A stretch of 38,084 nt of DNA, from the IMG/VR virus record IMGVR_UViG_3300048913_000099. The stretch is one strand, 5' to 3'. Positions 259-38,084 of the stretch are shown here, in pieces (position 1 is the stretch's first letter; every line of letters begins with the position of its first letter). Source of the stretch: a virus. Made by a program: the position numbers and the translations under genes. The notes under the pieces were generated by a model. It was not told where the DNA came from, did no database searches, and worked only from the letters and a program-made list of their open reading frames with translations.

Positions 259-413
259 AAGTAGCGTTCCTTGGTCAGGATCTCGCGCCATTTCTTGCTG
301 GGCACGAGGAACTTCACCAGCTTGTTGCCGCCCTTGATGGCCAGAAGCCAGTACAGGTAGGCGAACACCGGCACGAAGACAGCCTTCAGGGCAATGGCGT
401 ATAGCCAGTTCAT
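255..413 (-). CDS. Small hydrophobic membrane protein, 52 aa (MNWLYAIALKAVFVPVFAYLYWLLAIKGGNKLVKFLVPSKKWREILTKERYF), antisense to the late operon
   Basis: Hand-translated; it falls below the ORF-track length cutoff. AAGGA lies 7 nt upstream of the ATG at 413. The peptide has one clear TM segment and a basic tail. It is the only plausible coding content in the 258-517 gap. Confidence 0.5.
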   Translation of the reverse strand: MNWLYAIALKAVFVPVFAYLYWLLAIKGGNKLVKFLVPSKKWREILTKERYF

Positions 414-476
414 CGGGGTCGTCCTTGGATGGATCGCCGAATGCTACCACCGCCGGACCACCGCTGCGTTATCCAC

Positions 477-501
477 AGCCCGCCCTGAGCGGGCTTTTTT
501 A
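477..501 (+). terminator. Rho-independent terminator-like hairpin immediately upstream of the first tail fibre gene
   Basis: A 7-bp stem AGCCCGC/GCGGGCT (477-483 / 489-495) with loop CCTGA is followed by TTTTTTATT. Confidence 0.6.
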
Positions 502-516
502 TTGCCTGGAGCACCC

Positions 517-2983: not shown

Positions 2984-2988
2984 CGATC

Positions 2989-3429
2989 ATGCCCAAGTAC
3001 GCCACCGATTACACCGCAGCAGCTACCGTTTCTGGAGCCGACCTGTGTCAGATCGTCCAGGGCGGCGTCGACAAGAAAGCGACGTTGGCCCAGATCGCGG
3101 CGCTGGCGACCACGGGAAGCGGCGTCACGATCACCACGAAGACCGCCAGTGCAACGCTGGCGCTGGCTGATGGCGACTGGATCGAGATGGACGTGGCAAC
3201 CGCCAACACCCTCACTGTGCCGCCAAACTCGACCGTGGCGTTCCCGATAGGCGCTGTGCGCAACATCAACCAGCGCGGGGCAGGGCAGACGACGGTGGTA
3301 GCGGGTGCAGGCGTGACGATCCGCACCGACGAGACGCTGAAGCTGCGAAAGCAGTGGGCGACCGCGGTTCTGGTCAAGCGCGCCACCGACGAGTGGGTTC
3401 TAGCCGGCAGCCTGGAGGCTGCGCCGTGA
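2989..3429 (+). CDS. Hypothetical virion/tail protein (146 aa)
   Basis: It is tightly packed after the previous gene, has high GC3 and Ala/Thr/Val-rich beta-type composition. Confidence 0.6.
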   Translation: MPKYATDYTAAATVSGADLCQIVQGGVDKKATLAQIAALATTGSGVTITTKTASATLALADGDWIEMDVATANTLTVPPNSTVAFPIGAVRNINQRGAGQTTVVAGAGVTIRTDETLKLRKQWATAVLVKRATDEWVLAGSLEAAP

Positions 3430-5141
3430 TCCCCGGCGTGGTCGCCGGAGCACGGTTCCGGGGAGCACCTGCGAAAAAGCGCGTGCGCATCACCATCCCT
3501 GCGCAGACGGAGGCCATGTCCGGTTTCCCGGTTTACATTGACCTATCCTTACTGCCTCCGGCGGTCTGGACCGGCATGGCCTACAAAGACGGTCGCGATT
3601 TCAGGGCGAAGACTACGGCCGGGGTCGACATCCCGTTCCATCTGGTCCGTGTGGACCCGGCTGCGAAGGCAGGAGCCATGTTTGTTCGGGCGACTCTGAG
3701 TGCCTCGTCCATCACAGAATTTGACCTTCATTACGGAGATTCGTCGCTTGCCAAGGTGCCCAACAACGCGGCCAACGGTGCCTATGCGGTATGGGCAGAC
3801 TACCAGCGCGTATTCCTGTTCAATTTGGTCGAGACAGACTGGACCGGTGTTGGTTCTGCCGCGGCGCAGTCAAACCGCATCAAGTTGTTCGAACTGGTCA
3901 GCGACAAAACAGGGCTGACTGAGCATCAGGGCGTGTGTTGGGATGGCACTCACTACTACCTGACTGACACGAACGCCATCAACAAATACGACGCTTCGTG
4001 GAACCTGGTTGCGACAAATGCCAACCCGGTTGGCGATGTGGGTAACGGGACGAACCACTGCGGAGACCCCGACGTTCACAACGGCGTGCTTTACGTGCCA
4101 GTCGAGTCCTACACCAGCGTCACGGTGTTCTCGAACCAGCGCATCGCTCGGTTCAACGCGGCGACCCTGGCCTTCATCGACTCGGTCGACGTTTCGGCGC
4201 AGGCCGACGAGATATCGACCATCGCCATCAACGCTGAGCAGAACGCGCTGTGGACAACTAGATATAGCGATAGCGCCACCTTTAAGCTGAATCGATACAA
4301 CCTGAGTACCCTCGCATATGAGAGCTCCAGCAGCGGTAACCCGGGGCCCATGCGTGTTCAGGGCCTAGCCCGTTGGCGTGACATGTGGTTTGCCAATGGG
4401 GATACAGCAGATTTCACATTCCGTATGAGTGAGAACCTGGATACGGCTACGCGCGCATGGACGGATATCCCTGATGGTGCCACGTCCCGCGCTGGGAATT
4501 ACGAAGGGCTGGGGTCCACTGATGACAACCTTTTGGTACTGCGCGACGATGGAACGGGCACGGTCCTGCATACCATTCGGCCGCTCAATACTGAGGCTGG
4601 CGGCGGGTTCGAATCGGTGGTCGTCGGCAGCAACACCGGCTACATGCTCGGCCAGGGGCTTACCAACCAGGCCACCTTCACCATGGGCGCGACGATCATC
4701 GCCAACGCCTTTGCCGCGGCCAACCAGGCGATTCTCTCCTACACCGCAAACACGACGGCGAATACCAACCGCGTGACGCTCGGCTATCGAGGTGCGACGG
4801 GCAAGGTAGGATTGTGGGACACGGGCAATACCTGGCTGGAGTCGACCACGACGCCGGCGGCAGGGGCGAAAACGCGCGTCCACGCAAGGTACGTGGGCAC
4901 GACCTCCAGATCGCTGTTCTACAACGGCGTTCGAGAAGCCCACGCCGCGCCTATCACGACCGCGCCGACCGGCAAGGTCTCCCTGCATATGGGTGTCGAA
5001 GACCAGAGCCTGGCCGAGATGTTCGCGGGACGGATGGGCTTCGTCTACCTGCGAGCCAGCGCCCTATCGGATGCCTGGATCGCGGCCGAGTGCGCCAACC
5101 TGTCCGCTCCCGGCAGCTTCTACGCCGTGAGCACGCCTTGA
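3426..5141 (+). CDS. Putative receptor-binding tail protein: DUF2341-like N-terminus plus a LamG/concanavalin-A-like C-terminal domain (about 571 aa)
   Basis: GTG at 3426 overlaps the upstream stop; ATG at 3516 is an alternative start. The N-terminus (RITIPAQTEAMSGFPVYIDLSLLP) resembles DUF2341. The C-terminus (..TFTMGATIIAN...RVTLGYRG..LFYNGV..MGFVYLRASALSDAWI) resembles LamG/Laminin_G_3. GC looks lower than in the flanking genes. Confidence 0.6.
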   Translation: MIPGVVAGARFRGAPAKKRVRITIPAQTEAMSGFPVYIDLSLLPPAVWTGMAYKDGRDFRAKTTAGVDIPFHLVRVDPAAKAGAMFVRATLSASSITEFDLHYGDSSLAKVPNNAANGAYAVWADYQRVFLFNLVETDWTGVGSAAAQSNRIKLFELVSDKTGLTEHQGVCWDGTHYYLTDTNAINKYDASWNLVATNANPVGDVGNGTNHCGDPDVHNGVLYVPVESYTSVTVFSNQRIARFNAATLAFIDSVDVSAQADEISTIAINAEQNALWTTRYSDSATFKLNRYNLSTLAYESSSSGNPGPMRVQGLARWRDMWFANGDTADFTFRMSENLDTATRAWTDIPDGATSRAGNYEGLGSTDDNLLVLRDDGTGTVLHTIRPLNTEAGGGFESVVVGSNTGYMLGQGLTNQATFTMGATIIANAFAAANQAILSYTANTTANTNRVTLGYRGATGKVGLWDTGNTWLESTTTPAAGAKTRVHARYVGTTSRSLFYNGVREAHAAPITTAPTGKVSLHMGVEDQSLAEMFAGRMGFVYLRASALSDAWIAAECANLSAPGSFYAVSTP

Positions 5142-6092
5142 TCGAGCGAAGCGTTCTACTGTGAAGTAGGACAGGGCCGCGCCAAGGATGGCGCCGCCAC
5201 CGCCGATAGCCAGGCACTCGAATCCGGTCACGTCATGCCCGCGCAGCCAGAGCATGATCGGGTAGTGCCACAGGTAGATGCCGTAGGACAGCTTCCCGAT
5301 CCACACCAGTGGCGCCCACGCGAGCAGGCGGACCTGGTGGGCACCCAGCACCAGCAGCAGCGAACCGACCTCAGCCACGGCCATCCACACGGTCAGGGCG
5401 GTATCGACCTTCGTGTATGCCTGCGACATGGCCAGCAGCAGCAACGCACCGCCGAGAGGGGCGGCCAGCCGCGGGACCTGCGGCTTCCAGAGGCCGGCAG
5501 CAGCGCCGAGCAGCAGACCGGACAGGCGGGTGTCGAACCGGTAGTAGGGCTGTTGCCACGAGTCCACGTTGAACACGACGTGCCAACGCCACAGGGTGGC
5601 GGCCGCGGCGAGCGACAGGACCACCACGGTCCAGTACCTGCGGGGCAGCCTCAGAACCAACAGCAGGGCAACCGGCCAGGCCAGGTAGAAGTGCTCTTCC
5701 ACCGACAGGCTCCAGGTGTGCTGGACCACCCACGGAATCTTCCAGAAGGCGAAGCCGTAATCGGAAAGGTAGGTGGCGGCAACCAGCGCGTCGCGCGCGT
5801 GACCCTGCCGGTTCGGGAAGGCCAATGGCCCGGCGATCAGGTAGACGCCCAGGAACAGCAGCAGTGCCGGATAGAGCCGGCGCAGGCGGCGCAGGTAGAA
5901 GGCGGGGACGTTGATGGTTGCAGTGGCGCTGTGCTGGTCGGCCAGCAGGCGCGTAATCAGGTAGCCCGACAGGACGAAGAAGACGTCGACCCCGAAGAAC
6001 CCGCCGTGGAACCCCTCAATCCGGGCGTGGAACGCCAAGACCAGCAGCACGGCCAAGGCTCTCAGTCCATCGAGTGCAGGGTTGTACCGCAT
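5064..6092 (-). CDS. Acyltransferase family 3 membrane protein (OafA/Oac-like O-antigen or polysaccharide O-acetyltransferase), 342 aa
   Basis: MRYNPALDGLRALAVLLVLAFHARIEGFHGGFFGVDVFFVLSGYLITRLL is the canonical Acyl_transf_3 N-terminus, and the protein is multi-TM. GAGGGGA precedes the ATG at 6092. The 87-aa upstream extension in the ORF track is not supported by GC3. Confidence 0.85.
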   Translation of the reverse strand: MRYNPALDGLRALAVLLVLAFHARIEGFHGGFFGVDVFFVLSGYLITRLLADQHSATATINVPAFYLRRLRRLYPALLLFLGVYLIAGPLAFPNRQGHARDALVAATYLSDYGFAFWKIPWVVQHTWSLSVEEHFYLAWPVALLLVLRLPRRYWTVVVLSLAAAATLWRWHVVFNVDSWQQPYYRFDTRLSGLLLGAAAGLWKPQVPRLAAPLGGALLLLAMSQAYTKVDTALTVWMAVAEVGSLLLVLGAHQVRLLAWAPLVWIGKLSYGIYLWHYPIMLWLRGHDVTGFECLAIGGGGAILGAALSYFTVERFARSRRAHGVEAAGSGQVGALGRDPGIR

Positions 6093-6167
6093 GGCTTCCC
6101 CTCGTTTTCCCCGGCTGGATTGTGCCACGGTCGCAACCCCTGAGACGGTCGGGCGTATCCTGCGGCC

Positions 6168-6350
6168 ATGGACACCCCTGACAAGCCCGAACCGCCAGAC
6201 CGCCCGGACCCCACCAAGCTGAGGCCGGACCACAGCCACCTGCTGGTGCGCGACACCCGGACCCCGGAGGAGCAGCAGGCCGCCTCGCTGAAAGAGTCGG
6301 CGAGGCGCAAGGGTAGGGGGCGGTCGAAGTGGTGGGAGAAGGGGAGCTAG
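6168..6350 (+). CDS. Hypothetical charged, Pro-rich 60-aa protein (uncertain)
   Basis: GC3 is about 90% in this frame and clearly lower in the overlapping minus frames. There is no visible SD and no recognised motif. Confidence 0.3.
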   Translation: MDTPDKPEPPDRPDPTKLRPDHSHLLVRDTRTPEEQQAASLKESARRKGRGRSKWWEKGS

Positions 6351-6383
6351 CAAGTTGCTGTAAAAGCGGCTGACCCTTTACAG

Positions 6384-6418
6384 ATTGGCCTGAAATTTCG
6401 GTGCAGTTTTTGTGCAGT
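6384..6418 (+). repeat. attP left arm: ATTGGCCTG plus GTGCAGTTTTTGTGCAGT (putative integrase arm-type sites)
   Basis: The 18-mer GTGCAGTTTTTGTGCAGT (6401-6418) and the 9-mer ATTGGCCTG (6384-6392) both recur in direct orientation at 6581-6606 on the other side of the tRNA-derived core. Confidence 0.6.
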
Positions 6419-6489
6419 CGCTGCGTCAGAAGTGGTGGTTTTGGTCTACATGCGGCCCATAAGAATTAATAAGTTGCGCCTCTACATGT

Positions 6490-6546
6490 GACTTAAAATC
6501 CGCCGGGGGCAACCCCATGCCGGTTCGATTCCGGCCCCGGGCACCA
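6490..6546 (+). other. attP core: 3' portion of a tRNA-Leu(UAA) gene (anticodon loop, long variable arm, T-arm, 3' acceptor strand, CCA)
   Basis: The segment reads CTTAAAA loop (anticodon TAA at 6494-6496), variable-arm hairpin GGGG-CAA-CCCC, T-arm GCCGG-TTCGATT-CCGGC, acceptor CCCGGGC, A, CCA (6544-6546). No matching 5' acceptor or D-arm lies upstream, so this is a fragment, as expected for a phage att site in a tRNA gene. Confidence 0.75.
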
Positions 6547-6580
6547 AGGGTTTCAGCCTGTTATCCACAGCTGCACAAGA

Positions 6581-6606
6581 ATTGGCCTGTGCAGTTTTTG
6601 TGCAGT
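6581..6606 (+). repeat. attP right arm: second copy of ATTGGCCTG/GTGCAGTTTTTGTGCAGT
   Basis: It is an exact direct repeat of the left-arm motifs. A partial inverted copy, CTGCACAA, lies at 6571-6578. The integrase stop is at 6613. Confidence 0.6.
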
Positions 6607-6612
6607 GAATGC

Positions 6613-7542
6613 TCAGGCCAGCTTCTTGATCGCATCGGCCAAATGGCCCGGCGCGAGGTGAGCATACCGCCTCGTCATCGCCAGCGAACTGTGCCCAAGC
6701 ACCTCCGAAACCGTGTGCAGCGATACCCCGGCCTGCACCAGCCAGGACGCGCAGGTGTGGCGCAGATCATGCCACCGCACGTCCTGCAGCCCGCACGCCT
6801 CGCGCGCCGCCGCCCATGACGACCTGACCTGATCCTCTGAGATCGGCAGGGGCAGCCGCTGAGCGATCCCCAGCACCTTCGGGTGCAGCGGGACAAGCTG
6901 CAGGGAACTCGTCTTGCTCGTCCGGTCCAGCCGGATGAAGCCCTCCTTGACCTCGTGATGGGTCAGGCGCAGCAGGTGCCCACGGCGAATGCCCGTATAG
7001 GCTGCCAAACGCACGTAGTCGCCCGCCAATGGATTCGGGCAAGCCCTCGCCAGTGCCTCGACCTGCTCGGTCGTCAGGAACGTCTCGCGCGGCTTCTCAG
7101 GCAACAGCGCAATCGCCGCTGGCCTTTCCAACCAACCCCATTCCCGCCACGCCATCCGCGTGATCTGCCTCAGAATCCGGCCCTTGTGGTTCACCGTGGC
7201 CGGTGCCTTGCCGATCTCCGCAGCCTTGATCTCGGCCCACACCTTCGCCGTGTCCGTCAGCTTCCTGCCGCGGATATAAGGCATCAGCGCCTTCACGTGC
7301 GAATTGGTCTTTGCCTCCGACCGCAGCCGGGGCAGATGCTCCACCTGGAACTTGTCGATGGCATCCGCTATTGATCGCTCGGGTTGACGACCAGCCGAAG
7401 CTGCGTTGAACGACGCGAGCCACTTCTTTTCGAAGGCTTTGGCCTCAGCGTATGACCAGCTGCGAGACGTCTTTCGATACGTTCTTCCGCCGTGTCCAAC
7501 TGTAACTTGATAGCTTCCGTTGGGGCGCTTGGTGATTGGCAT
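6613..7542 (-). CDS. int: Tyrosine integrase (309 aa from the MPITKRPNGSYQV start)
   Basis: The C-terminal catalytic region WHDLRHTCASWLVQAGVSLHTVSEVLGHSSLAMTRRYAHL gives the R..HxxR..Y signature. The N-terminus KRPNGSYQVTV..YRKT is arm-binding type. The gene is adjacent to attP. ATG at 7566 is an alternative start. Confidence 0.9.
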   Translation of the reverse strand: MPITKRPNGSYQVTVGHGGRTYRKTSRSWSYAEAKAFEKKWLASFNAASAGRQPERSIADAIDKFQVEHLPRLRSEAKTNSHVKALMPYIRGRKLTDTAKVWAEIKAAEIGKAPATVNHKGRILRQITRMAWREWGWLERPAAIALLPEKPRETFLTTEQVEALARACPNPLAGDYVRLAAYTGIRRGHLLRLTHHEVKEGFIRLDRTSKTSSLQLVPLHPKVLGIAQRLPLPISEDQVRSSWAAAREACGLQDVRWHDLRHTCASWLVQAGVSLHTVSEVLGHSSLAMTRRYAHLAPGHLADAIKKLA

Positions 7543-7730
7543 GCCTGCAACCTGCATTTGGCCCACCAGACGGACAGGTCTGCGGGGTGGATTCGATCTG
7601 ACTTCGCGCCCTGACCAAGGCGGCAGGCAGCAAGGCTACCCGCATCAATGGCCCGGCGGAGGGTCTTGGTGGAACAGGCGCACCTTTCAGCCGCCTGCGC
7701 CAGGGTCATTAGCTGCTCAGCCGCCGACAT
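7368..7730 (-). CDS. xis: Excisionase-family DNA-binding protein (120 aa; the C-terminal tail overlaps int)
   Basis: GAGGAGG lies upstream of the ATG at 7730. LMTLAQAAERCACSTKTLRRAIDAGSLAACRLGQGAKSDRIHPADLSVWW matches the excisionase/MerR-like HTH pattern. No stop occurs until 7368, so the ORF overlaps int by about 175-200 nt. Confidence 0.65.
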   Translation of the reverse strand: MSAAEQLMTLAQAAERCACSTKTLRRAIDAGSLAACRLGQGAKSDRIHPADLSVWWAKCRLQACQSPSAPTEAIKLQLDTAEERIERRLAAGHTLRPKPSKRSGSRRSTQLRLVVNPSDQ

Positions 7731-7938
7731 CGGGGGCCTCCTCTCGTTCGCGCTCCGACAACAAAGAGCCAGCCAGCTCGTGCAGGACCTCAATGATGAA
7801 ACGCTGGTCCTCTGCAACCTCCCTGTAAACCTTGACCTTCCATTCAAGCCTCCGGATCGTCTCGTTCCGCTCCCGGATCGTCCTCGCGTTTCGGCGGCGC
7901 TGGTGCTTGTACCTGCGGATCAGCTCGTTGCTATTCAC
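7717..7938 (-). CDS. Hypothetical basic coiled-coil protein (73 aa, GTG start)
   Basis: It has a GTGA overlap with the upstream small ORF. The sequence is NSNELIRRYKHQRRRNARTIRERNETIRRLEWKVKVYREV. The start is uncertain. Confidence 0.4.
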   Translation of the reverse strand: MNSNELIRRYKHQRRRNARTIRERNETIRRLEWKVKVYREVAEDQRFIIEVLHELAGSLLSEREREEAPDVGG

Positions 7939-8096
7939 AGAATCACCGCCTTCACCCAAAGTCCGATGAGCGGCGGAGACATCCAGAAACCTACCCATAC
8001 CGCAGCCGCCCACGTCAGTCGCTTGCTGTTCGCGGAGATGGCCCAAGAGACAAGCCCCAGACCGCCGAACAGAGCCACCATGAAGCATGTAAACAT
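7935..8096 (-). CDS. Small two-TM membrane protein (53 aa)
   Basis: MFTCFMVALFGGLGLVSWAISANSKRLTWAAAVWVGFWMSPPLIGLWVKAVIL. The ATG lies 14 nt after the stop of the Lar-like gene. The 75-aa version in the track would overlap the Lar-like gene. Confidence 0.45.
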   Translation of the reverse strand: MFTCFMVALFGGLGLVSWAISANSKRLTWAAAVWVGFWMSPPLIGLWVKAVIL

Positions 8097-8110
8097 CGCA
8101 TCAGCCTGGT

Positions 8111-8500
8111 TCACGGCGTCACCTCCGGGCGAGCAGCGAGCATGGCGGGCCATTCGACGCATGGGTTGATGTTGGCAGGCGATTTCACCCGCTCCCGAAT
8201 GCCCGCCTCTTTCATTTCCTCAGTCGGCACCACCGGCACCAGCACGTAGCCCTCGGGCGGAGTGAGGGCGGCGCGGGTGTTCCATGCCTGCACGGTGTCC
8301 GGCTCATACCCCGGGCAACTGGATATCCCCTCGCACTCGCATTCGGTGCAGTGCACCTTCTGCCATTCAACGATGGCGTGGCTCCACAGATCCTCATCCT
8401 GCCAACTCCTGATGGCTGCATCACCACCACAGAACGGGCATGCCAACAACTCCCGCGCCCTCTTCTCGATGTCGCTCACTGGTCTGCCCCCATATCCCAA
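8111..8500 (-). CDS. Lar-family (restriction-alleviation-type) zinc-ribbon protein
   Basis: CPFCGG...HCTECECEG...AWNTRA is the Lar-family signature (CPFCG plus a second Cys pair plus AWNxRA). GTG at 8479 is an alternative start. Confidence 0.65.
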   Translation of the reverse strand: MGYGGRPVSDIEKRARELLACPFCGGDAAIRSWQDEDLWSHAIVEWQKVHCTECECEGISSCPGYEPDTVQAWNTRAALTPPEGYVLVPVVPTEEMKEAGIRERVKSPANINPCVEWPAMLAARPEVTP

Positions 8501-29514: not shown

Positions 29515-29718
29515 ATGGCACTTCCGTCCGATACCGTCGCTGCGGCGGCTACCGAAACCCCGGATGGCACCTTGGTCGGCCGCAATGCCGACTCCAAGGT
29601 GGGCTTCTACGGCGCTACGCCGACTGCCCAGCCTGCCGCACTGAGTCTGGCGACGGTCACCGCCGCCCAGCTCGCAACCGCTCTGGCCGCCGTTGGCCTG
29701 ATCAAGACCACCGCCTGA
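29515..29718 (+). CDS. Small head-associated hypothetical protein (67 aa)
   Basis: AAGGAGA lies upstream. The gene is immediately after the coat gene and the protein is Ala/Thr-rich. Confidence 0.6.
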   Translation: MALPSDTVAAAATETPDGTLVGRNADSKVGFYGATPTAQPAALSLATVTAAQLATALAAVGLIKTTA

Positions 29719-29728
29719 GGAGGCTGAC

Positions 29729-30004
29729 ATGGCCGATTACAAGCACGCCAAGTACCTGCACAAGGACGGCGAGGTGAAGTTGTTCCCGGGCGACGAGGTC
29801 GAGGATGCGCTGGCCTCCGGCTGGGAGTATCCGAAATTCCCGCGCTCCAACGGCGAAGAGTGGAACCCGGAGGTTCCGGAGGATGAGGTCTCTGCCGCTG
29901 ATGCGGCGGCCGAAGTCCTGAAGGCCAACCGCGCTCGCCAGGAGAAGCTGGACGCCAAGGAAGCCAAGGCCGAGCAGGCCAAGGCCGAGAAGCCGAAGAA
30001 GTAA
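29729..30004 (+). CDS. Hypothetical protein (91 aa, acidic then K/A/E-rich tail)
   Basis: GAGGAGG lies upstream, and the gene is followed by a strong terminator. Confidence 0.6.
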   Translation: MADYKHAKYLHKDGEVKLFPGDEVEDALASGWEYPKFPRSNGEEWNPEVPEDEVSAADAAAEVLKANRARQEKLDAKEAKAEQAKAEKPKK

Positions 30005-30068: not shown

Positions 30069-30476
30069 ATGACAAAGGTCGCAGAAATCGTAGTCGGCGC
30101 CCTTGGGCTGCTACGCGTTGTCAGTGCCACCGAGGCTCCGGAGGCCGAAGACGCGAAGACGGCGATTGATTCCCTCAACCGCATGATGGCGCGCTGGGAG
30201 GCCAACGGTTACTCGGTCGGCTGGTCGCCTGTGGACAACCCTGACGATGACATGCCGACGCCGGTCGAGACCGACGAGGCGATCATGTACAACCTGGCTG
30301 TTCGTCTGCGCCCTTTCTACGGCGTGACGCTCGATCCAGACGTATTCAATGAAGCACGGCGGTTGAAGTCCGACGTGCTGGCTGACGTGTTCTCGTCCAG
30401 CCCGATGAGCATGGAGCCGGGTCTGCCCGGGTTCCGTTGCCGTTACAACATTCGCAGCGACGGGTACGACCGCTAA
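30069..30476 (+). CDS. P22 gp4-like head-to-tail adaptor (135 aa)
   Basis: IVVGALGLLRVVSATEAPEAEDAKTAIDSLNRMMARWEANG parallels my recollection of the P22 gp4 N-terminus (..ALRKLGV...DLEAMMAEW..). It lies upstream of the gp10 homologue. Confidence 0.65.
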   Translation: MTKVAEIVVGALGLLRVVSATEAPEAEDAKTAIDSLNRMMARWEANGYSVGWSPVDNPDDDMPTPVETDEAIMYNLAVRLRPFYGVTLDPDVFNEARRLKSDVLADVFSSSPMSMEPGLPGFRCRYNIRSDGYDR

Positions 30477-32872
30477 TGCGCGCCAGTCCTGTGGACCTGA
30501 TCGGCGGCTTCTACGCCGACGACACGCTGCCGTGGTCGTGCCAGGACACCGTGAACTGGCTGCCGGTGATGGCGGAGGTTGGCGGGACGCGCACGCCGAG
30601 CAAGCTGGCGACGCCGCCGGGCCTGAAGCCCTACCAGCGCGTGGGCACTGGCCCGATCCGCGGTATGCACGATCTTGAGGGCGCCCAGTTCGTTGTTTCC
30701 GGTCGGTATCTGTACCAGATCGGGAACAGCGGGGTGGCTATTCCGATTGGCGTGATCCCTGGCGTTGGCCGGGTGAGCATGACCCACAACCAGTTCAAAA
30801 CCGGCTATCAGCTGCTCGTGGAGAACGGGCAGGGCGGTGGCGGGTACATCTACGACTCCAACACCAAGGCGTTTTCCCGCATCACGGACGAGGGCTATCC
30901 GGGCTCTATCTCGTCCGACTATCTCGATTCCTACCTACTTGGCGTGGAGCCGCAGGGCCGGTACTGGTTCCACAGCAATCTGGCCGACGCCACCGACTAC
31001 AACACCCTGGACCGGTACGAATCCGAGGCATCCCCGGACAAGATCGTCGGCCTGGCCGTGAGCCAGCTCGAAGTGGTGGTGTTCAACCAGCGCACCATTG
31101 AATTCTTCTACAACGCTGGCGGGGCGACTGGCACGTTCCAGAACCGCCGACAGTCGATCACCCGCGGGTGCGCATCACGCCACACCATCGCAAAGCTGGA
31201 CAACACCTTGTTCTGGCTGGGCGACGACGGGATTGTGTATCGCCTAGAAGGCTACTCAGCCCGTCCGATCTCCACCGGCCCGATGCACCGCGCATTCGCT
31301 GGCAAGAACTGGAGCGAGGCGTTCGCCCAGGTCTGGGAAGATCGTGGCTTCAAGGTCTACTACCTGACCTTCCCGGACGGCATGACCTTCGGCTACGACG
31401 TGGTGTCCGGTCTCTGGACCCGCCGTGAGTCGTTCGGCCTGAACCGTTGGCGTCTGAGCCACATCGTCAGGTGGGGTGCCAAGTGGTATGGCGGCGACTA
31501 CCAGGACGGCCGGAACTGGGAGCTGGACTGGGACTACTTCCTTGAGGGGAGTGACCCAATGGTCAGCGAGCGGGTTTCGCCGGTCCTGAGCGACAACCAG
31601 AGCATGTTGCTGATTCCGAGCGCAGAGCTGATTTTCGACACTGGCCAAGGCCCGGAGACGATCCCCACCGAGTTCCCGCCGCAGCCGTCTTCGCCGACTC
31701 TGAGCGGTGATGCTCCGGATACGTTGCGCGGGATCGTCTACACCGACTTCACCTACACCATCGCTGGCGGGGAATCTCCCTATACGGTGGTCGTATCCAG
31801 TGGGAGCCTCCCTCCTGGCCTGTCTATCAGCAGCTCTGGCGTGATTTCTGGGACGGCTACTGCCTCGGGCATGTTCAAGTACACCTTGCGCGTGACTGAT
31901 GCAAAGGGGCTGTGGACCGAACTGGCAGATTCGATTGGCGTGTCAACGCAGGTCCTGGCGCTTGGCGCTACGGCAGGAAATACAAAGATTGTCACGCGTC
32001 GCAATCTGAGCGGCACCTGGTCGAACGTGAACGCCGGTACGGCCGCAGGCTCTACGAATCTCGAAGGTCTCGCCAGTGGCAGATTCATTGCATGGATCGC
32101 CGGAGCGGCCTTCTACAGCGACGACAGCGGATCAAATTGGACGCAATCGGCCAGCACAATCGACTCTTCCGGTGGGTCTAGGAACGGAGATTCGCTTGGG
32201 GCTGTAGTGGTACTCGGTGGTGGTCTCGGAGCGTTCTATGTAAGCACGAACAGCGGCACGACCTACGCCACCCGTACGGCTACCACTACCTTCTTGGGCA
32301 ACCCGCTCATCGTGAAGGCGGGGCCGAACACGGGAAGAATTCTTCTGGTCAATTCGCTGCCCACCTCCGCAAATTCCTACAGCGACGACCAAGGGGTGAC
32401 CTTCGGTTCTGTCCCTGCACATGGCGTGACGCGTTCCTCCGGTGGGTCCACTCATTCGTCTGGCGAGTACCAGTACATCGGCGGCAACGTTGCCGCTGGG
32501 GGTAAGCCCCGAGTGGCAGTGATGCAGGGCGGCTCAACCTTGCTTCGAACACTGACCCTTGCAGCGGCAACCAACGGCACGGTGAGCGCAATTCTGCGTT
32601 ACCCGATGGGTTCAGGTCAGCGCTTGCTGATGGGGACCTCTACGGGCGAGTTGTGGGCCTCGGATGACAACGCAGTGACGGCAATTCGCATCCCTCTTGC
32701 ATCCGGCGGGGCTATATCCGGCCTGGCCTTTGATGGCGCCCGCCTACTTCTGTCCTCCAGTAGCGGATCGATGCCAGTTCGGGTCAGTGCCGACAATGGA
32801 GTTACCTGGGTGACTGAGAGCAATCCCAGTACTGGCGGAATTACTTCGCTCGCAGGACTTCCCAATGGCTGA
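30476..32872 (+). CDS. P22 gp10-like tail hub (packaged-DNA stabilisation protein) with a C-terminal Ig-like plus BNR/Asp-box extension (798 aa)
   Basis: The N-terminal roughly 400 aa carry gp10-type motifs (GRVSMTHNQ, YESEASPDKIVGLAV, IEFFYNAGGATG). A He_PIG-type Ig motif (SGSLPPGLSISSSGVISGTATASG) follows. After that come SxDxGxxW-type repeats (YSDDSGSNWT, STNSGTTYA, SDDQGVTFG, SADNGVTWV). Confidence 0.75.
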   Translation: MRASPVDLIGGFYADDTLPWSCQDTVNWLPVMAEVGGTRTPSKLATPPGLKPYQRVGTGPIRGMHDLEGAQFVVSGRYLYQIGNSGVAIPIGVIPGVGRVSMTHNQFKTGYQLLVENGQGGGGYIYDSNTKAFSRITDEGYPGSISSDYLDSYLLGVEPQGRYWFHSNLADATDYNTLDRYESEASPDKIVGLAVSQLEVVVFNQRTIEFFYNAGGATGTFQNRRQSITRGCASRHTIAKLDNTLFWLGDDGIVYRLEGYSARPISTGPMHRAFAGKNWSEAFAQVWEDRGFKVYYLTFPDGMTFGYDVVSGLWTRRESFGLNRWRLSHIVRWGAKWYGGDYQDGRNWELDWDYFLEGSDPMVSERVSPVLSDNQSMLLIPSAELIFDTGQGPETIPTEFPPQPSSPTLSGDAPDTLRGIVYTDFTYTIAGGESPYTVVVSSGSLPPGLSISSSGVISGTATASGMFKYTLRVTDAKGLWTELADSIGVSTQVLALGATAGNTKIVTRRNLSGTWSNVNAGTAAGSTNLEGLASGRFIAWIAGAAFYSDDSGSNWTQSASTIDSSGGSRNGDSLGAVVVLGGGLGAFYVSTNSGTTYATRTATTTFLGNPLIVKAGPNTGRILLVNSLPTSANSYSDDQGVTFGSVPAHGVTRSSGGSTHSSGEYQYIGGNVAAGGKPRVAVMQGGSTLLRTLTLAAATNGTVSAILRYPMGSGQRLLMGTSTGELWASDDNAVTAIRIPLASGGAISGLAFDGARLLLSSSSGSMPVRVSADNGVTWVTESNPSTGGITSLAGLPNG

Positions 32873-33092
32873 TACCGATCATTTTGTTGACGTGTCCTAC
32901 AGCAAGGACGGTGGCCGCAACTGGAGCAACCGCAGGCGGTATTCGATAGGCAAAATTGGGCAGTACGATCAGAGGATCAGGCTTCTGCGTCTGGGCCGAG
33001 CTCGGCAGTGGGTGTTCCGGATCACAGTGTCCTCCGCACGAAAGCGCGATCTCCTTGGCGCCGTCGTGTCTGTCGAGGGAACGGACGACTGA
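32865..33092 (+). CDS. Separate 75-aa ORF equivalent to the conserved C-terminus of gp10-family proteins
   Basis: VSYSKDGGRNWSNRRRYSIGKIGQYDQRIRLLRLGRARQWVFRITVSS parallels the gp10 C-terminal segment as I recall it (..TTDGINYG...YDKRVLWKRVGRIRRLIGFKLRV..). It overlaps the upstream stop by 8 nt. Confidence 0.6.
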   Translation: MADTDHFVDVSYSKDGGRNWSNRRRYSIGKIGQYDQRIRLLRLGRARQWVFRITVSSARKRDLLGAVVSVEGTDD

Positions 33093-33637
33093 TGCTCATC
33101 ATTGACGGTGCAAACCTGGACGCGCAGGCGCTCCGGGCAGCGGGCCTGTGCGCGCCGTATGTGGATTGGCCCGGCTATGACGGAGAGGTCTACAAGCGCG
33201 TGTGTCTGACCGAGATCCCGGGCCTGCAGGATGCAATCGAGGCCCAGATGGGTCCGGTCGAGATGCTGGGCATGGGCTACCGGCTCAACTTCAACCGCGA
33301 GCTGCCCAATGCGGCGATCCACTCGGACATGGGCTGGGGCACGCACGCCGCGGTGCTGTATCTGAGCGAAGGGGAGGGTGGCACGGCCTTCTGGCGGCAC
33401 AAGGCTACCCGCGCAGCCCGCATCGATCCCGGCGACATGGCCCTGTTTGAACAGGTCCGCCACGACTGGGACGACGCCAGCAAGTGGGACCAGGTCGGCC
33501 TGGCTGAAATGAAGCTCGGTCGCCTGCTGATCTACGAATCCGCACTGTTCCACAGCCGCTGGCCGTTCGAGGCCTTCGGCACCGATTACGACTCTGGCCG
33601 CCTTGTCGCGGTCGCCTTCTTTACCCCGAGGGGCTGA
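33092..33637 (+). CDS. 2OG-Fe(II)-oxygenase-like (cupin/DSBH) protein, 181 aa
   Basis: The HxD (IHSD), GTHAAVLYLSEGEGGTAFWRH, the distal His (ALFHS) and a downstream Arg (GRLVAVAFF) fit the facial triad plus the 2OG-binding Arg. It has an ATGA overlap with the upstream gene. Confidence 0.55.
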   Translation: MLIIDGANLDAQALRAAGLCAPYVDWPGYDGEVYKRVCLTEIPGLQDAIEAQMGPVEMLGMGYRLNFNRELPNAAIHSDMGWGTHAAVLYLSEGEGGTAFWRHKATRAARIDPGDMALFEQVRHDWDDASKWDQVGLAEMKLGRLLIYESALFHSRWPFEAFGTDYDSGRLVAVAFFTPRG

Positions 33638-34086
33638 TGACCATCATCCGCAAAGGAACTCTGGCCGACGTGCCGGAGATCGTCCGCATGTCCGCAGCTT
33701 TCTACCCGACCACGCATTACGCCCAGTGGTGCGACATGGACGAGGAGACGGTGGCTGATCTGGCCTCCGGCCTGATCGAGAGCCACATCTTCTACGTGGC
33801 TGAGGACGGCGGACGACTGGTCGGCATGGTCGGCCTCTTCATCATCCCCTTCATGTTCAACCGGCACGCCACGTCCGCTGGCGAGGTCGTGTGGTGGGTT
33901 GACCCCGAGGCCCGCGGCTCTCGCGTTGCCGTCTCGCTGCTTCAGGCAGTTGAGGGCGCTTGCCGCGATGCAGGTGCCGACCGAATCCAGATGGTCCACA
34001 TGCCCAACAGCCCTCCGCAGGCCGCAGCCCTCTACGAAAAGTTGGGCTACTCCCGATCCGAAATCAGCTATACCAAGGACATCTGA
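33637..34086 (+). CDS. GNAT-family N-acetyltransferase (149 aa)
   Basis: The motif A region is VVWWVDPEARGSRVAVSLLQAVEGACRDAG, and the C-terminus is LYEKLGYS. The start overlaps the upstream stop. Confidence 0.7.
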   Translation: MTIIRKGTLADVPEIVRMSAAFYPTTHYAQWCDMDEETVADLASGLIESHIFYVAEDGGRLVGMVGLFIIPFMFNRHATSAGEVVWWVDPEARGSRVAVSLLQAVEGACRDAGADRIQMVHMPNSPPQAAALYEKLGYSRSEISYTKDI

Positions 34087-34088
34087 CC

Positions 34089-34808
34089 ATGGCCGCAATC
34101 ACCGCAGCAGCAGTCGTTGCCGCAGGCAGCGCATACGCCGCCAACCGCCAGGGCGCGGCCCAGAAGAAGGCTGGCCGGGCGCAGGCCAGTGCAGCTCAGC
34201 AGACGCTTGACCAGCAACAGGCGCTGTACAACAACGCCGTGGAGGGCGCGCAGCCCTACGCGCAGGCTGGCACCAACGCGCTCGGCCAGCTGGAGGCGGT
34301 CAATCGCGGCGACTACTCAGGTTTCGAGAACGCCCCTGATTACCTGTTCGCGCGAGATCAGGGCATCCAGGGCCTTGACCGTGGCGCAGCAGCTCGGGGC
34401 GGCTTGTACTCGGGCGGCGCTGACGCCGACCGGATGGCCTTCGCCTCGGGCTTGGCAAGCCAGAACCTCGGCCAGTACACCAACCGCCTGATGGGCCTGA
34501 CGCAGCTCGGCTCGAACACCCAGCAGTACCTCGGGCAGTTGGGCCAGAACTACGGCAACCAGTTCGCCAACGCTATGGGCATCAAGGGGCAGGCGAACGG
34601 CATGGTGGCGAGCGCTGGCGCAGCAGCGCAGGCGGGCTATGGCAACGCGCTGGCATCCGGTGCTGGTGCATACCTGGGGGCAGGCGGCGGTGGGGGTGGC
34701 GGGAACGCTCTCGGCAGTCTGCAGGGATTCGGCAACAACATGGACGGCCTGATGGGCCAAGCCGGCGCTGGCCGCCGATCCAGTTTCGACTTCAAGGGGT
34801 GGGTCTAA
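34089..34808 (+). CDS. Ejection/internal virion protein (gp7 position, 239 aa)
   Basis: It has a hydrophobic Ala-rich N-terminus, low-complexity Gly/Gln/Ala-rich sequence and a GGGGGGG tract. It lies in the ejection-protein block. Confidence 0.6.
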   Translation: MAAITAAAVVAAGSAYAANRQGAAQKKAGRAQASAAQQTLDQQQALYNNAVEGAQPYAQAGTNALGQLEAVNRGDYSGFENAPDYLFARDQGIQGLDRGAAARGGLYSGGADADRMAFASGLASQNLGQYTNRLMGLTQLGSNTQQYLGQLGQNYGNQFANAMGIKGQANGMVASAGAAAQAGYGNALASGAGAYLGAGGGGGGGNALGSLQGFGNNMDGLMGQAGAGRRSSFDFKGWV

Positions 34809-34811
34809 GCC

Positions 34812-36263
34812 ATGGCTGATTTCCAGCAGAACTTCATGAACAGCTTGGCTGGCGGATTCCAGTTCGGCCAGCAGGTGCGCGGTGTGCAGGACCGCAACAA
34901 GATCAACCAGCTTGCGTCGATTGCATATCAGGCTCCGGCCGATCAGCGCCAGGAGATTCTGGGTCAGGCCGCCGCGGTGGACGCAGGCCAGGCCTTTGCG
35001 TTGGATCGGCAGCTCGGCAACAATGACGAGCGTCGCAACACGACCATGATCAACATGGCCAAGCTGCTGACCTCAGCACCGGAGCAGGCCCGGCCGGGGC
35101 TGTACCAGCAGTTCGTCCCGACCCTGTCCAAGTTCGGCCTGTCCGATCTCCCCACTGAGTACAACGCCCAGACCGCACCTGTAATCGATCAGGCCGCGCA
35201 GTCGCTGGTGCAGGCTTACAGCGGCGGGGCGGCGGGTTCGGGTGTCCAGTCCACCTATGTGGACAACAACGGGCAGCGTGTGGCCATCATGCGCGACGGC
35301 TCCACCCAAGTTCTTGGCGGAAACGACGTTGGCGCCAACCAGCAGTCTCTGACAATCGATGTCAACGGCACCCCGACGCAGGTTACTTTTGACCGCCGCA
35401 CCGGCCGGTACACGAATGCCGCTCTTGGAGCCCCGGCCCAGCAAGCCCCGCAGCAGCCGCAGGGCGGCTACCAGCAGATCAACGGCCAGCAGACCTACAT
35501 CGATCCGAACCTCCCGCCGCAGGTGCAGCAGCAGATTCGCCAGTCGCTGGCCTCGGGTCAGGAACCTCCGGCACAGATGGCGTTCGCCGGTCAGCCCCTG
35601 GTGGGGCGGCGCGCTGAGGATCAGGCTGCAGCGGTAGAGGCGGCCAAGCTGGCGGCCCAGCAGCAGTTCCTTCCTCAAGAACTGGGTATGCGCACGCAGG
35701 CAGCGATTCAGCAGGCGGGCGGCACCGCGCAGGCGAAGGGGGAGGCAGAGGCCAGGCTTGATGCAGTCCAGAACCTGCCGCGCGTGATGCAGGAGTCCAC
35801 CAATGCGATCCGCCTGATCGACTCGGCGCTCAACCATCCAGGGCTGGCTACGGCGGTGGGTGCATCTGGCCGAATCGACCCGCGTAACTACGTGCCGGGC
35901 ACTGACGCAACCGATTTCCGGGTTTTGCTCGACCAGATCAAGGGTGGCACCTTCCTGCAGGCGTTCCAGAGCTTGAAGGGCGGCGGTGCCATCACCGAGG
36001 TGGAAGGAACCAAGGCGGAGCAGGCAATCGCTCGTCTCAACCGAGACCAAAGCGAGCAGGCATTCCGCCAGTCGCTGCAGGATCTCCGTGAAGTTGCCCA
36101 GTCGGCCATTGCCCGTGCTCAGTCCAAGGCTCAGGCAGCAGGGGGTGGCACCGCAGTGCCGGGGGGCGCAGCACGCCGAATCCAGTCCGCCGAGGACTAC
36201 AACGCGCTCCCGAGCGGTGCGCTGTTCATCGCTCCTGATGGCACCCAGCGGAGGAAGCGCTGA
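34812..36263 (+). CDS. Ejection/internal virion protein (gp20 position, 483 aa)
   Basis: It is a Q/A/G-rich protein in the ejection block, tightly packed with its neighbours. Confidence 0.6.
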   Translation: MADFQQNFMNSLAGGFQFGQQVRGVQDRNKINQLASIAYQAPADQRQEILGQAAAVDAGQAFALDRQLGNNDERRNTTMINMAKLLTSAPEQARPGLYQQFVPTLSKFGLSDLPTEYNAQTAPVIDQAAQSLVQAYSGGAAGSGVQSTYVDNNGQRVAIMRDGSTQVLGGNDVGANQQSLTIDVNGTPTQVTFDRRTGRYTNAALGAPAQQAPQQPQGGYQQINGQQTYIDPNLPPQVQQQIRQSLASGQEPPAQMAFAGQPLVGRRAEDQAAAVEAAKLAAQQQFLPQELGMRTQAAIQQAGGTAQAKGEAEARLDAVQNLPRVMQESTNAIRLIDSALNHPGLATAVGASGRIDPRNYVPGTDATDFRVLLDQIKGGTFLQAFQSLKGGGAITEVEGTKAEQAIARLNRDQSEQAFRQSLQDLREVAQSAIARAQSKAQAAGGGTAVPGGAARRIQSAEDYNALPSGALFIAPDGTQRRKR

Positions 36264-38084
36264 TGGCCAATCCTTGGGATGAGGACGAAATTGTAGCCGC
36301 TGCCCCAGCGACTCAGCCCGTCCCGTCGATGGTCGCGCCTGCTGCCCCTGAGCAGGGATCGAGCGCACCTTGGGACCAGGACCCTATCGTTGATGAAGGC
36401 GGCCAGGAGCCGCTTGAGATCGATATCGTTGGCGGCGTTCGCGAGAGTGACCGAGCGGTGCAGCAGGCCGCCGCGAATCCGACCGATTCTATGAGCGGCC
36501 TTGATCGTTTCAGTGCCGGCGTGGGGAAGTCCCTAGTCGACACGTATCAGGGCCTGAAGCAGTCAGCGGTTGAGGGCCAGCCCACCGGGTGGGCGGCGAT
36601 CAACTCTGGTGTCCTCGGGCTGCTGCAGGGCCGGGGATTCACCGAGAGCGCCCTTGGCGGGTTGTCGGAGCTGGGCCAAGCGCGCCAGCAGATGCGACAG
36701 GAGACTGCCGACCGGCGAGAGCTTGACCGACCGCTGCTGGATACCGGTGCAGGCATGTCCGGCAACGTTCTTGGCACGATCGCTCAGCTTCTCGGGCCGG
36801 GCCTCGCCGCACGTGGGACAGCAGCGGCCCCGGCGCTGCTTCCCACCACCATCCGAGGCAATGCGCTGCAGGGTGCCGTCATCGGTTCAATCCAACCAGC
36901 CGCCAGCACCGAAGAGCGCGGAGTGAATGCACTCGTCGGCCTGGCCGGTGGCGGCGGTGGTGCAGGTTTGGCAAAGCTGGGGGGCGCGACCTACAACGCA
37001 CTGGCTGGCCTTGGCCGCGGCGGACTCTCGACCGCTGATCGTGGCGCCGCGCAGGTCCTGATGCGCGAGGCTTCAGACCCCGCTGCACTGCAGAGGGTTG
37101 CCCCGTCTCAGGTTGACGGCGTACAGCGCACACTTGCCGAGGAAACGCTTGATCCGGGGATCGCGCGCCTCGAACGAACCTCGCGCAGCACCGGCGGGCA
37201 GTTCGACGCGATCGACCGAGCCAACAATGCTGCGCGCGTCCGCGCTCTGGAGACGTTCGCTCAAGACGAAACCGCGCTGGCGGCCGCAACTCGCGCGCGA
37301 AACCAGGACACCAAGGCGCTGCGAGAGCAGGCCATGCAGGACCGAGGCGTTGATGTGGCCGCGGTCCGCAGCGTTCTGGATCGTCAGTTGGAATCCACTG
37401 CGACCCGTCCCTCGGTCCAGTCAGCCCTTCTGGATGTTCAGCGCTCTCTGGATGAGGCGGGCGACGATGTGTTCAGCCTCTACGGCACGCGCAAGTACAT
37501 CGATGACCTCCTGAGCGGGAAGGCGGGCAGCGACAAGTCGTATGCCAAGGCTGCTACGAAGGAGCTGATGCAGATCAAAGGCGCGCTGGACTCCAAGCTC
37601 GCAGATGCCTCCCCCAGCTTCTCGCAGTACCTGGAGAAGTACCGTGAGATGTCCGGCCCGATCAACCGTATGCAGGTCGGCCAAGCGCTGACCGGGCGAG
37701 GCTCCGGCGGTGCGGTTATGGACCCGGTGACGGGCGTGCAGGTCCTGACGCCGGCGCAGTTCAGCAAGGCGTCGCGCTCTCTGGACGACGTTGCTGCCAA
37801 GGCCACAGGCTTCAAGAAGGCCAAGGCTGCGGATATCCTTCGCCCCGGCGATATCGCGATCATTAAGTCGATTCAGGACGATCTCGAGCGGCAGGCATTC
37901 CGAGCCACGGCCGGCAGCGGCGGCAACTCCCAGACCTTCGAGCGTCTTGGCGTGCAAGACCGAATCGCCAAGGGTGCAGGACGTGAAGCAATGGGGCTGA
38001 TGCCCGGTGGCCGCTATGTTGGCGACCTGCTCGACATCCTGGACAAGAGCAAGAACGACCAGTTGAAGGAGCGACTGGCCTACC
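36263..38084 (+). CDS. Ejection/internal virion protein (gp16 position), 5' part; runs off the window and ends at 258 after the circular wrap
   Basis: The ATG at 36263 overlaps the upstream stop (TGATG). My hand translation is open to the window end and in phase with ORF 34..258. Confidence 0.75.
   Translation, partial: MANPWDEDEIVAAAPATQPVPSMVAPAAPEQGSSAPWDQDPIVDEGGQEPLEIDIVGGVRESDRAVQQAAANPTDSMSGLDRFSAGVGKSLVDTYQGLKQSAVEGQPTGWAAINSGVLGLLQGRGFTESALGGLSELGQARQQMRQETADRRELDRPLLDTGAGMSGNVLGTIAQLLGPGLAARGTAAAPALLPTTIRGNALQGAVIGSIQPAASTEERGVNALVGLAGGGGGAGLAKLGGATYNALAGLGRGGLSTADRGAAQVLMREASDPAALQRVAPSQVDGVQRTLAEETLDPGIARLERTSRSTGGQFDAIDRANNAARVRALETFAQDETALAAATRARNQDTKALREQAMQDRGVDVAAVRSVLDRQLESTATRPSVQSALLDVQRSLDEAGDDVFSLYGTRKYIDDLLSGKAGSDKSYAKAATKELMQIKGALDSKLADASPSFSQYLEKYREMSGPINRMQVGQALTGRGSGGAVMDPVTGVQVLTPAQFSKASRSLDDVAAKATGFKKAKAADILRPGDIAIIKSIQDDLERQAFRATAGSGGNSQTFERLGVQDRIAKGAGREAMGLMPGGRYVGDLLDILDKSKNDQLKERLAY
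37958..38084 (+). repeat. 127-nt exact repeat of window positions 1-127 (circular-assembly overlap or terminal redundancy)
   Basis: A direct comparison of both ends shows that they are identical. Confidence 0.9.

Follow-up and report, generated by a model that had tools for sequence, protein, structure and literature searches.

We found that the gene for the tail hub in the IMG/VR virus record IMGVR_UViG_3300048913_000099 is divided between two overlapping open reading frames (ORFs). In the 38,084 nucleotides (nt) of this record, called here the window, ORF1 occupies positions 30437/30476-32872 and ORF2 positions 32865-33092, both on the plus strand. The hub chain is carried by these two ORFs in different frames, ORF2 being in the +1 frame relative to ORF1, and each has its own start and stop codons. 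ORF2 encodes 75 amino acids (aa), and ORF1 encodes 798 aa when counted from the ATG at 30476, which we take as its start because the consensus of its homologues begins with MRAxPVDLIGG. Sequence, predicted fold and synteny together place the two ORFs in the P22 gp10-type hub family, of which they are a split variant that carries a modular arm and does not have the single-chain feature of all solved members. The best joint explanation, and one that we consider likely to be right, is that the gene underwent a fission, that the ORF2 product completes the hub in trans, and that an immunoglobulin (Ig)-like domain and a beta-propeller at the end of ORF1 form an exchangeable host-binding arm.

The hub body corresponds to ORF1 residues 1 to ~395 (30476-31660, plus strand). 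PHROG 578 ('head closure Hc3', the P22 gp10 family) covers residues 1-421 with profile positions 1-417 of 486 (E = 2e-104), and some 380 extra residues, with the Ig-like domain and an Asp-box propeller, follow the conserved body, in agreement with a sequence-only reading of the window that had described a gp10-type hub with a large insertion. The Pfam family PF11134 (Phage_stabilise) gives a partial match just under its gathering score (22.3 vs 25 bits). Among the sequences of solved structures in the PDB, ORF1 matches 9vyg_M, 7eeq_1, Sf6 gp8 and P22 gp10 with E values from 7e-19 to 4e-5, residues 45-344 corresponding to residues 40-327 of the solved hub chains 9vyg_M and 7eeq_1. AlphaFold2, run on ORF1 alone with an alignment of 120 homologues, gave a mean predicted local distance difference test score (pLDDT) of 77, with moderate values of 50-85 for the hub body and values below 50 for residues 1-45 and 363-392. 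When the modelled body was compared with known structures by Foldseek, it matched P22 gp10 (8eap_D, 8u10_1) and Sf6 gp8 (7sg7_S) with a probability of 1.00 over ~350 columns, at a root mean square deviation of 5.2-6.4 A and a target template modelling (TM) score of 0.47-0.49. The body is accordingly modelled with the interrupted six-bladed beta-propeller fold of P22 gp10-type hubs, and its parts can be recognised as an N-terminal extension (residues 1-45), the interrupted beta-propeller, and a 'FDTGQGPET' strand that precedes the insertion hot spot. With the whole ORF1 chain as query, Foldseek retrieves tandem-propeller proteins (PorZ, DDB1, GH74, BT4673), and in a viral library it retrieves many 'P22 Gp10' models, one of which has 879 aa and is labelled as a 7-bladed propeller protein. 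The gene position is also that of P22 gp10 and Sf6 gp8, after a gp4-like adaptor and before gp7/gp20/gp16-like ejection genes: in the window the gp4-like adaptor gene lies directly upstream of the hub, and genes for ejection-like proteins, recognised by Pfam and PHROG, follow at 33960-38084.

The conserved C-terminus of the family is absent from ORF1 and, as the sequence-only reading had proposed, lies in the small overlapping ORF2. PHROG 578 matches ORF2 residues 10-72 with its positions 409-471 of 486 (E = 2e-12), PHROG 19101 matches with its positions 525-593 of 595 (E = 3e-23), and a profile of ORF2 homologues compared with the PDB matches residues 367-420 of 442 in 7eeq_1 (E = 3e-6) and residues 372-413 of 446 in 9vyg_M (E = 2e-4). 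A tblastn query with ORF2 matched 33 phage records, in each at the C-terminus of a 'stabilization protein / Hc3' gene. ORF1 and ORF2 align end to end with single-chain hubs, ORF2 being colinear with the last ~70 residues of these, and the break falls just past the conserved 'ETGVG' strand: '...AELIFDTGQGPET' in the window corresponds to '...LQLDxETGVGL' in single-chain relatives, and 'DTDHFVDVSYSKDGGRNWSN...' at the beginning of ORF2 corresponds to 'xDPQVMLRWSDDGGHTWSN...', which is found 3-78 residues further on in the same chain.

The solved P22 gp10 and Sf6 gp8 hubs are single chains of ~472 residues in which both extensions belong to one apical domain (PMC9728967). In Sf6 gp8 and in Pa223 gp59 this apical insertion domain is formed jointly by the extensions at the two termini (PMC9728967; bioRxiv 10.1101/2025.06.11.659172), and in Pa223 it comprises residues 2-46 and 403-512 and binds the head-to-tail (HT) adaptor rings (bioRxiv 10.1101/2025.06.11.659172). 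P22 gp10 and Sf6 gp8 have in common with ORF2 the C-terminal motif, including an Asp-box, and differ from the window in being one chain, whereas here the C-terminal extension is a separate 75-aa protein and the body continues into an Ig-propeller arm of ~400 aa. By homology to Sf6 gp8 and Pa223 gp59, ORF2 would supply the C-terminal half of the adaptor-binding apical domain, and its partner would be ORF1 residues 1-45 together with a strand near residue 390. These proposed partner segments coincide with those left unstructured by AlphaFold2 in the model of ORF1 alone, which is consistent with an apical role.

The split is not peculiar to the window. From viral and genome collections we retrieved 90 related loci, and both parts of the hub were located in every one. 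With a cut-off of 45% identity to the hub body of the window, 46 loci qualify (the window itself included). The hub is split in all 46, which comprise phage Xfas53 as well as Stenotrophomonas, Pseudoxanthomonas and Luteimonas genomes, whereas all 37 distant relatives (30-37% identical) have a single-chain hub. Standalone homologues of ORF2 of 73-75 aa form 26 clusters with 59-95% identity, many of them on contigs of 30-42 kb. Across 25 sequences, ORF2 has a median pairwise ratio of nonsynonymous to synonymous substitution rates (dN/dS) of 0.26 and no indels, and both its ATG and its length are kept. Sequence comparison thus confirms that the split of the hub is genuine, with no error and no frameshift site behind it.

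Among the closest known systems is the cultured Xylella phage Xfas53 (GQ421471), which has the same split: gp36, of 642 aa, is followed by gp37, of 72 aa, with an ATGA overlap. Xfas53 gp36, annotated 'similar to P22 gp10', consists of a hub body, an Ig-like domain and a distal domain, while the only annotation of gp37 is 'conserved phage protein'. Identity to the window is 50% in the hub body and 39% in the C-terminal piece. There are also differences: the distal domain of Xfas53 has only ~140 aa and is another module, without an Asp-box propeller, and its second ORF is in frame -1 instead of +1.

Beyond the hub body, ORF1 continues into a Pro-rich linker and an Ig-like domain (residues ~396-487, 31661-31936, plus strand), and then into a distal Asp-box (BNR-type) beta-propeller (residues 488-798 and the stop codon, 31937-32872, plus strand). 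The Ig-like domain had been suspected at about 31709-31921 as a He_PIG motif, and Pfam He_PIG does match residues 420-479 (about 31733-31912; E = 3e-9, score 37.7 against a cut-off of 24), together with weak Sortilin/BNR matches in ORF1. Likewise, the four to five Asp-boxes that had been read from the sequence are present, their coordinates having been right within a few codons: the pattern S-x-[DN]-x-G-x-x-[WFY] occurs at ORF1 residues 548, 590, 636 and 771 (nt 32117, 32243, 32381 and 32786), at a spacing of ~42-46 residues save for one wider gap from 636 to 771, and a fifth copy is in ORF2. The propeller fold of the extension, which the sequence-only reading had left to structure prediction, comes out clearly in the AlphaFold2 model, where residues 400-798 mostly have pLDDT >90 and are all beta, with an Ig sandwich followed by 28 strands as assigned by DSSP, a number consistent with about seven four-stranded blades. 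When a profile of ten distal modules (that of the window has 311 residues) was compared with the PDB, it matched the C-terminal propeller of the GH74 xyloglucanase 2cn3_A (E = 1e-18), and further sialidases, Ycf48, DAIP and SorCS2. From profiles and model together, the distal module is confidently predicted to be a single Asp-box beta-propeller. An origin of the insert as an intein or other mobile element was also considered and set aside: the Pfam and PHROG matches of ORF1 are to hub, Ig and propeller only, and no nuclease or Hint-type match is listed.

The place where the arm leaves the hub appears to have a counterpart in Pa223. Pa223 gp59 is a six-bladed interrupted propeller whose residues 354-387 form an outward Fiber Attachment Loop that holds the fibres (bioRxiv 10.1101/2025.06.11.659172). 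This loop comes just before the C-terminal part, and the cassette of the window starts at the equivalent position, at about residue 396. The arrangement is nevertheless different, as Pa223 holds separate trimeric fibres non-covalently on a short loop of a single-chain hub, whereas in the window an arm predicted to be monomeric extends the hub body in one covalent chain, which breaks off at the end of the arm. Two of the single-chain relatives carry in-frame insertions between the 'ETGVG' strand and the C-terminal segment (437 aa in L048 and 261 aa in L066), and insertions at the same site are also found in BFVD A0A6J5R6I7 (879 aa, 'Lactonase, 7-bladed beta propeller') and in PHROG 19101 (~595 aa); the site therefore tolerates insertions. 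In chains of the L048/L066 type the polypeptide returns to the hub, so that these are true loop insertions, while in the lineage of the window the gene is broken after the module.

The arm is much more variable than its surroundings. Comparing the related loci with the window region by region, we found 71-92% identity in the hub body, 53-82% in ORF2, and 63-86% in the downstream DUF6445-type gene in the 15 loci where it was detected, including loci with a wholly different cassette. Identity falls to 34-63% in the Ig domain, and the distal module is matched over its full length only in two loci, L022 and L032 (~61%), with three partial weak matches besides. The locus L004 illustrates this mosaic well: its hub body is 91% identical to that of the window, its Ig domain 42%, its ORF2 82% and its downstream gene 85%, and the distal module has no match. 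The distal modules of the 120 best ORF1 homologues fall into at least 15 unrelated clusters, which include WD40/THOC3-like propellers, the Asp-box type of the window, Laminin_G_3 lectin-like domains and DUF7483. Conserved flanks combined with module turnover look like the signature of a host-range cassette swapped by recombination, and the hub is probably a carrier of exchangeable host-binding modules. Modular receptor-binding proteins of tailed phages resemble ORF1 in that identity drops sharply at a breakpoint between a conserved 5' part and a hypervariable 3' part, and lectin-like and propeller modules such as those of the ORF1 relatives are typical of them. However, their anchor is the N-terminus of a fibre or spike, whereas here the anchor is the hub protein itself; the arm of the window would moreover be monomeric and present in six copies, and the rest of the anchor gene follows the cassette.

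We propose that in this circular, temperate, Xfas53-like podophage of Stenotrophomonas type the hub gene was split naturally between the last propeller blade and the C-terminal apical part, at a site of the hub that would face outward. ORF1 would run from the hub body through the Pro-rich linker and the Ig domain to a single Asp-box propeller with a free C-terminus, and the 75-residue ORF2 chain would pair with ORF1 residues 1-45 and the strand near 390, completing an apical domain of beta-sandwich type through which the hub hexamer attaches to the ring of the gp4-like adaptor. The Ig-propeller arms, six monomers in all, would stand out from the periphery of the hub and bind the host surface, probably a glycan or lipopolysaccharide (LPS). 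With a free C-terminus, the cassette could accommodate any type of domain. Recombination anchors could be provided by the hub body, 5' of the cassette, and by ORF2 and the gene that follows it, 3' of the cassette, and we propose that the wholesale replacement of the cassette among close relatives follows from having such anchors on both flanks. A loop insertion would need the two ends of the inserted domain to meet, and a break after the module would lift this constraint, which may account for the variety of modules in the split lineage.

Several points weigh against this scheme. When ORF1 and ORF2 were concatenated, AlphaFold2 built no confident apical domain: residues 1-54 and 351-400 stayed below a pLDDT of 50, the ORF2 blocks had means of 52-84, and the rows of the alignment were unpaired and fewer in number than in the run with ORF1 only, which probably weakened the prediction. 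In the same model the distal propeller lost confidence in its last blade (residues 765-800, about 32768-32872), where pLDDT fell from ~90 to ~40-57, which could be an artefact of the concatenation or a competition by the Asp-box hairpin of ORF2. The presence of both products in virions and their association are predicted from sequence, and a receptor-binding role of the arm is suggested by analogy and in part by hypervariability itself. The genome has separate tail-fibre-like genes at 394-5141, so that the arm need not be the primary receptor-binding protein and may serve as an accessory adhesin. Furthermore, the equivalence between the Pa223 loop and the start of the cassette is drawn from residue numbering in a preprint, and many of the related loci are metagenomic and phylogenetically non-independent, so that locus counts overstate the number of independent events.

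Among the alternatives, the one that fares best concerns the arm and would leave the split hub unaffected: the arm could be a structural decoration or an enzyme, such as a depolymerase or glycosidase, instead of a receptor-binding element. We regard this as unlikely, though it has several points in its favour. The nearest relatives of the propeller by sequence are glycoside hydrolases, with GH74 ahead of the sialidases, other tail-fibre-like genes are available in the genome, and Ig-like domains on virions often give only weak, non-specific adherence. GH74 catalysis, however, needs two propellers that form the cleft, and the sialidase catalytic architecture is an Arg triad with a FRIP motif. 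An enzymatic activity of the arm appears unlikely because it has one propeller only, because none of the hydrolase families reaches its curated Pfam threshold in ORF1, and because a 'RIP' tripeptide at ORF1 residues ~739-741 is not conserved in homologues; the glycosidase-type role that the sequence-only reading had entertained is thus not upheld, and a binding role seems the more economical one. Against decoration and enzyme alike, the wholesale swap of the arm by unrelated lectin-like and propeller modules among close relatives is the pattern of host-range determinants.

It is very unlikely that ORF2 supplies in trans the last blade, or a 'velcro' strand, of the grafted Asp-box propeller instead of completing the hub. 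The idea, raised by the sequence-only reading, is a natural one, since ORF2 carries at residue 13 a good Asp-box (SKDGGRNW) that matches those of sialidases, and site competition would be one reading of the concatenated model, in which residues 765-800 lose confidence while ORF2 gains a moderate one. However, canonical hubs of 450-480 aa that have no inserted propeller possess the same Asp-box at the same place (RWSDDGGHTWSN), as well as the whole 70-residue segment around it, and we consider the motif on this comparison to be an ancestral hub feature, independent of the grafted propeller. In addition, ORF2 is kept whatever the distal module, including beside ORF1s with non-propeller modules (Laminin_G_3, DUF7483, the ~140-aa domain of Xfas53), and ORF1 alone already folds in the model as a closed propeller with pLDDT >90.

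Programmed ribosomal frameshifting or stop-codon readthrough, yielding a fused hub chain with or without the separate products, is in our judgement highly improbable. It could be suggested by the overlap of ORF2 with ORF1 in the +1 frame in the window, by two loci (L014 and L017) in which ORF2 is in frame, 3 nt and 24 nt past the stop, and by a third (L093) where an in-frame TGA makes readthrough formally possible. The junction of the window, ATGGCTGA, is the 8-nt overlap between the ORF2 start and the ORF1 stop (32865-32872, plus strand), with an AGGA 7 nt upstream of the ATG, and it contains no slippery heptamer. Among the split loci, ORF2 is in relative frame 0, +1 or +2, even between close relatives, and the spacing between the stop of ORF1 and the start of ORF2 lies between -8 and +3 nt in 41 of 46: it is -8 nt in seven (the window among them), -4 nt in six (Xfas53 by its annotated ATG start), -1 nt in ten, +1 nt in eleven, +2 nt in six and +3 nt in one. 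One further locus has a distance of +24 nt, and the remaining four are three of a Luteimonas type and one whose hub body is disrupted. No conservation is seen in the junction sequences, and this, with the lack of a slippery heptamer, means that there is no conserved recoding signal and that ordinary translational coupling fits, as the sequence-only reading had favoured. ORF2 always keeps its own ATG, and a Shine-Dalgarno (SD)-like 4-mer is present 4-18 nt upstream of it in 16 of 27 loci, against a background of 19% (the loci not being independent). Moreover, a fused chain that had reached the far end of the distal propeller would need a way back to the apical domain. We propose that ORF2 is translated separately, by tight coupling to the ORF1 stop.

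That a sequencing or assembly indel at 32860-32875 broke what is truly one continuous ORF with an internal insertion has a negligible probability: one base gained or lost near the junction would indeed join the two frames, and large in-frame insertions at this site are known in single-chain hubs (L048, L066, BFVD A0A6J5R6I7), but the split recurs in every one of the 46 close loci, from independent sources that include the isolated phage Xfas53 and a complete chromosome of S. maltophilia, the loci differ from one another in junction sequence and frame relation, and the 26 standalone clusters start with Met at the same position, so that the split, against which the sequence-only reading had kept an error in reserve, stands.

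The fission may not be unique. An exhaustive search with the ORF2 profile found 3,916 representative proteins at E <= 1e-3, and in the best 150 of these, 140 of which are hub-related, the piece occurs in several contexts: 37 are standalone proteins of 63-98 aa (35 start with Met), 43 are proteins of 101-340 aa with the piece at the C-terminus (some of which may be contig-truncated fragments), 39 have the canonical length of 400-505 aa and ~21 are fused proteins of >505 aa, while 10 are unrelated multi-Asp-box proteins. Five standalone C-terminal pieces of 87-98 aa (P0197, P0233, P0258, P0272 and P0289) include the preceding 'ETGVG' strand, and the break therefore lies one strand earlier in them than in the window; P0258 is known from a 578-nt contig. 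These differing break points hint at independent fissions. In three loci of the Luteimonas type (L041, L042 and L087) the hub-body ORF has 536 aa with a tail of ~20-residue repeats, and is followed by a 343-aa ORF and then by a 281-aa ORF, in which the hub C-terminal piece forms the last 70 residues. In L041 this geometry extends over 4989-8447, with the extra material spread over three ORFs and part of it joined to the C-terminal piece. The locus L093 (3756-5216) has no cassette: its hub ORF of 413 aa ends at the in-frame TGA and a 71-aa piece begins two codons on, which could reflect a real fission, a nonsense mutation or stop-codon readthrough. In L033 (5001-7563) the frame of the hub body is broken after ~272 residues with cassette and ORF2 intact, and this contig may carry a pseudogene or an assembly error.

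The varied break points, the 281-aa Luteimonas protein and the cassette-free L093 suggest that the break arose more than once. On this basis we tentatively advance, as a possibility short of even odds, that fission at the outward fibre-attachment site is a recurrent evolutionary device that turns the hub, the best conserved tail protein of P22-like podophages, into a universal scaffold for monomeric and freely exchangeable receptor-binding modules, with a 'keystone' micro-protein of 70 residues completing the adaptor-binding domain in trans.

The genes around the hub are tightly packed. The P22 gp4-like gene for the head-to-tail adaptor (30069-30476, plus strand; Pfam P22_Tail-4, E = 4e-8; PHROG 637 'head-tail adaptor Ad3', E = 1e-27) ends in a stop codon that overlaps the ATG of ORF1 at 30476 as TGATG, and the stop of ORF2 overlaps the ATG of the next gene in the same way (33090-33094). 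Adaptor, hub body, hub C-terminal piece and next gene therefore form an unbroken coupled string. This next gene (33092-33637, plus strand) is DUF6445/2-oxoglutarate (2OG)-Fe(II) oxygenase-like (Pfam DUF6445, E = 1e-9; PHROG 1644, labelled 'minor coat protein'), and is itself coupled as TGATG to a GNAT-type acetyltransferase gene (33637-34086); both enzyme-like genes sit inside the virion-structure operon, between the hub and the ejection-protein genes. Between the major capsid and adaptor genes there are two small ORFs of 67 and 91 aa (29515-29718 and 29729-30004) that have no PHROG match, the 91-aa ORF showing a clear coding-type GC content at third codon positions (GC3).

The first 127 nt of the window (1-127) are repeated exactly at 37958-38084, giving a circular assembly of 37,957 bp, and the last ORF, which starts at 36263 in the gp16-like position, crosses the circle junction and stops ~110 nt into the start of the window. 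After the ejection genes come five plus-strand ORFs at 394-5141 (302, 322, 247, 146 and 595 aa), with a weak Gp53-like_C tail-fibre match and, in the 146-aa ORF, tail-fibre PHROG matches. Xfas53 gp44 and gp45 resemble these ORFs (Gp53-like_C; Laminin_G_3 plus a depolymerase C-terminal sandwich). We recognised no P22-type tailspike or needle gene in the genome. On the minus strand, a tyrosine integrase gene (6613-7566) adjoins an O-antigen acetylase-like moron (5064-6353), which suggests a temperate phage that modifies the LPS of its host; the moron also hints at LPS as the receptor. Integrase and acetylase fit a surface-polysaccharide receptor, and glycan binding by the arm may be expected by analogy.

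A split gp10-type hub with a modular arm is apparently undescribed, as we found no published description in a non-exhaustive literature search, although the Xfas53 record has carried the same architecture since 2010. Homologues of the long ORF are annotated as 'putative Ig domain-containing protein' and those of the 75-aa ORF as 'hypothetical protein'. Our analysis corrects this annotation: the 75-aa 'hypothetical' ORFs would be the C-terminus of the hub, and the long Ig-labelled ORFs its body plus the arm. So far, the tail hub of P22-like phages has been regarded as an unvarying structural core made of a single chain. If it is indeed made of two polypeptides here, with a hypervariable arm at the break, it would represent a natural split, trans-complemented virion protein, with a defined site that tolerates foreign domains and that structural biologists could use. 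A determinant of host range would also have been overlooked in prophages that are frequent in Stenotrophomonas maltophilia and Xylella fastidiosa, two targets of phage therapy and biocontrol, and, should the fission prove recurrent, it may be the hub arm, and not a tailspike, that sets host range in this large group of Xanthomonadales prophages.

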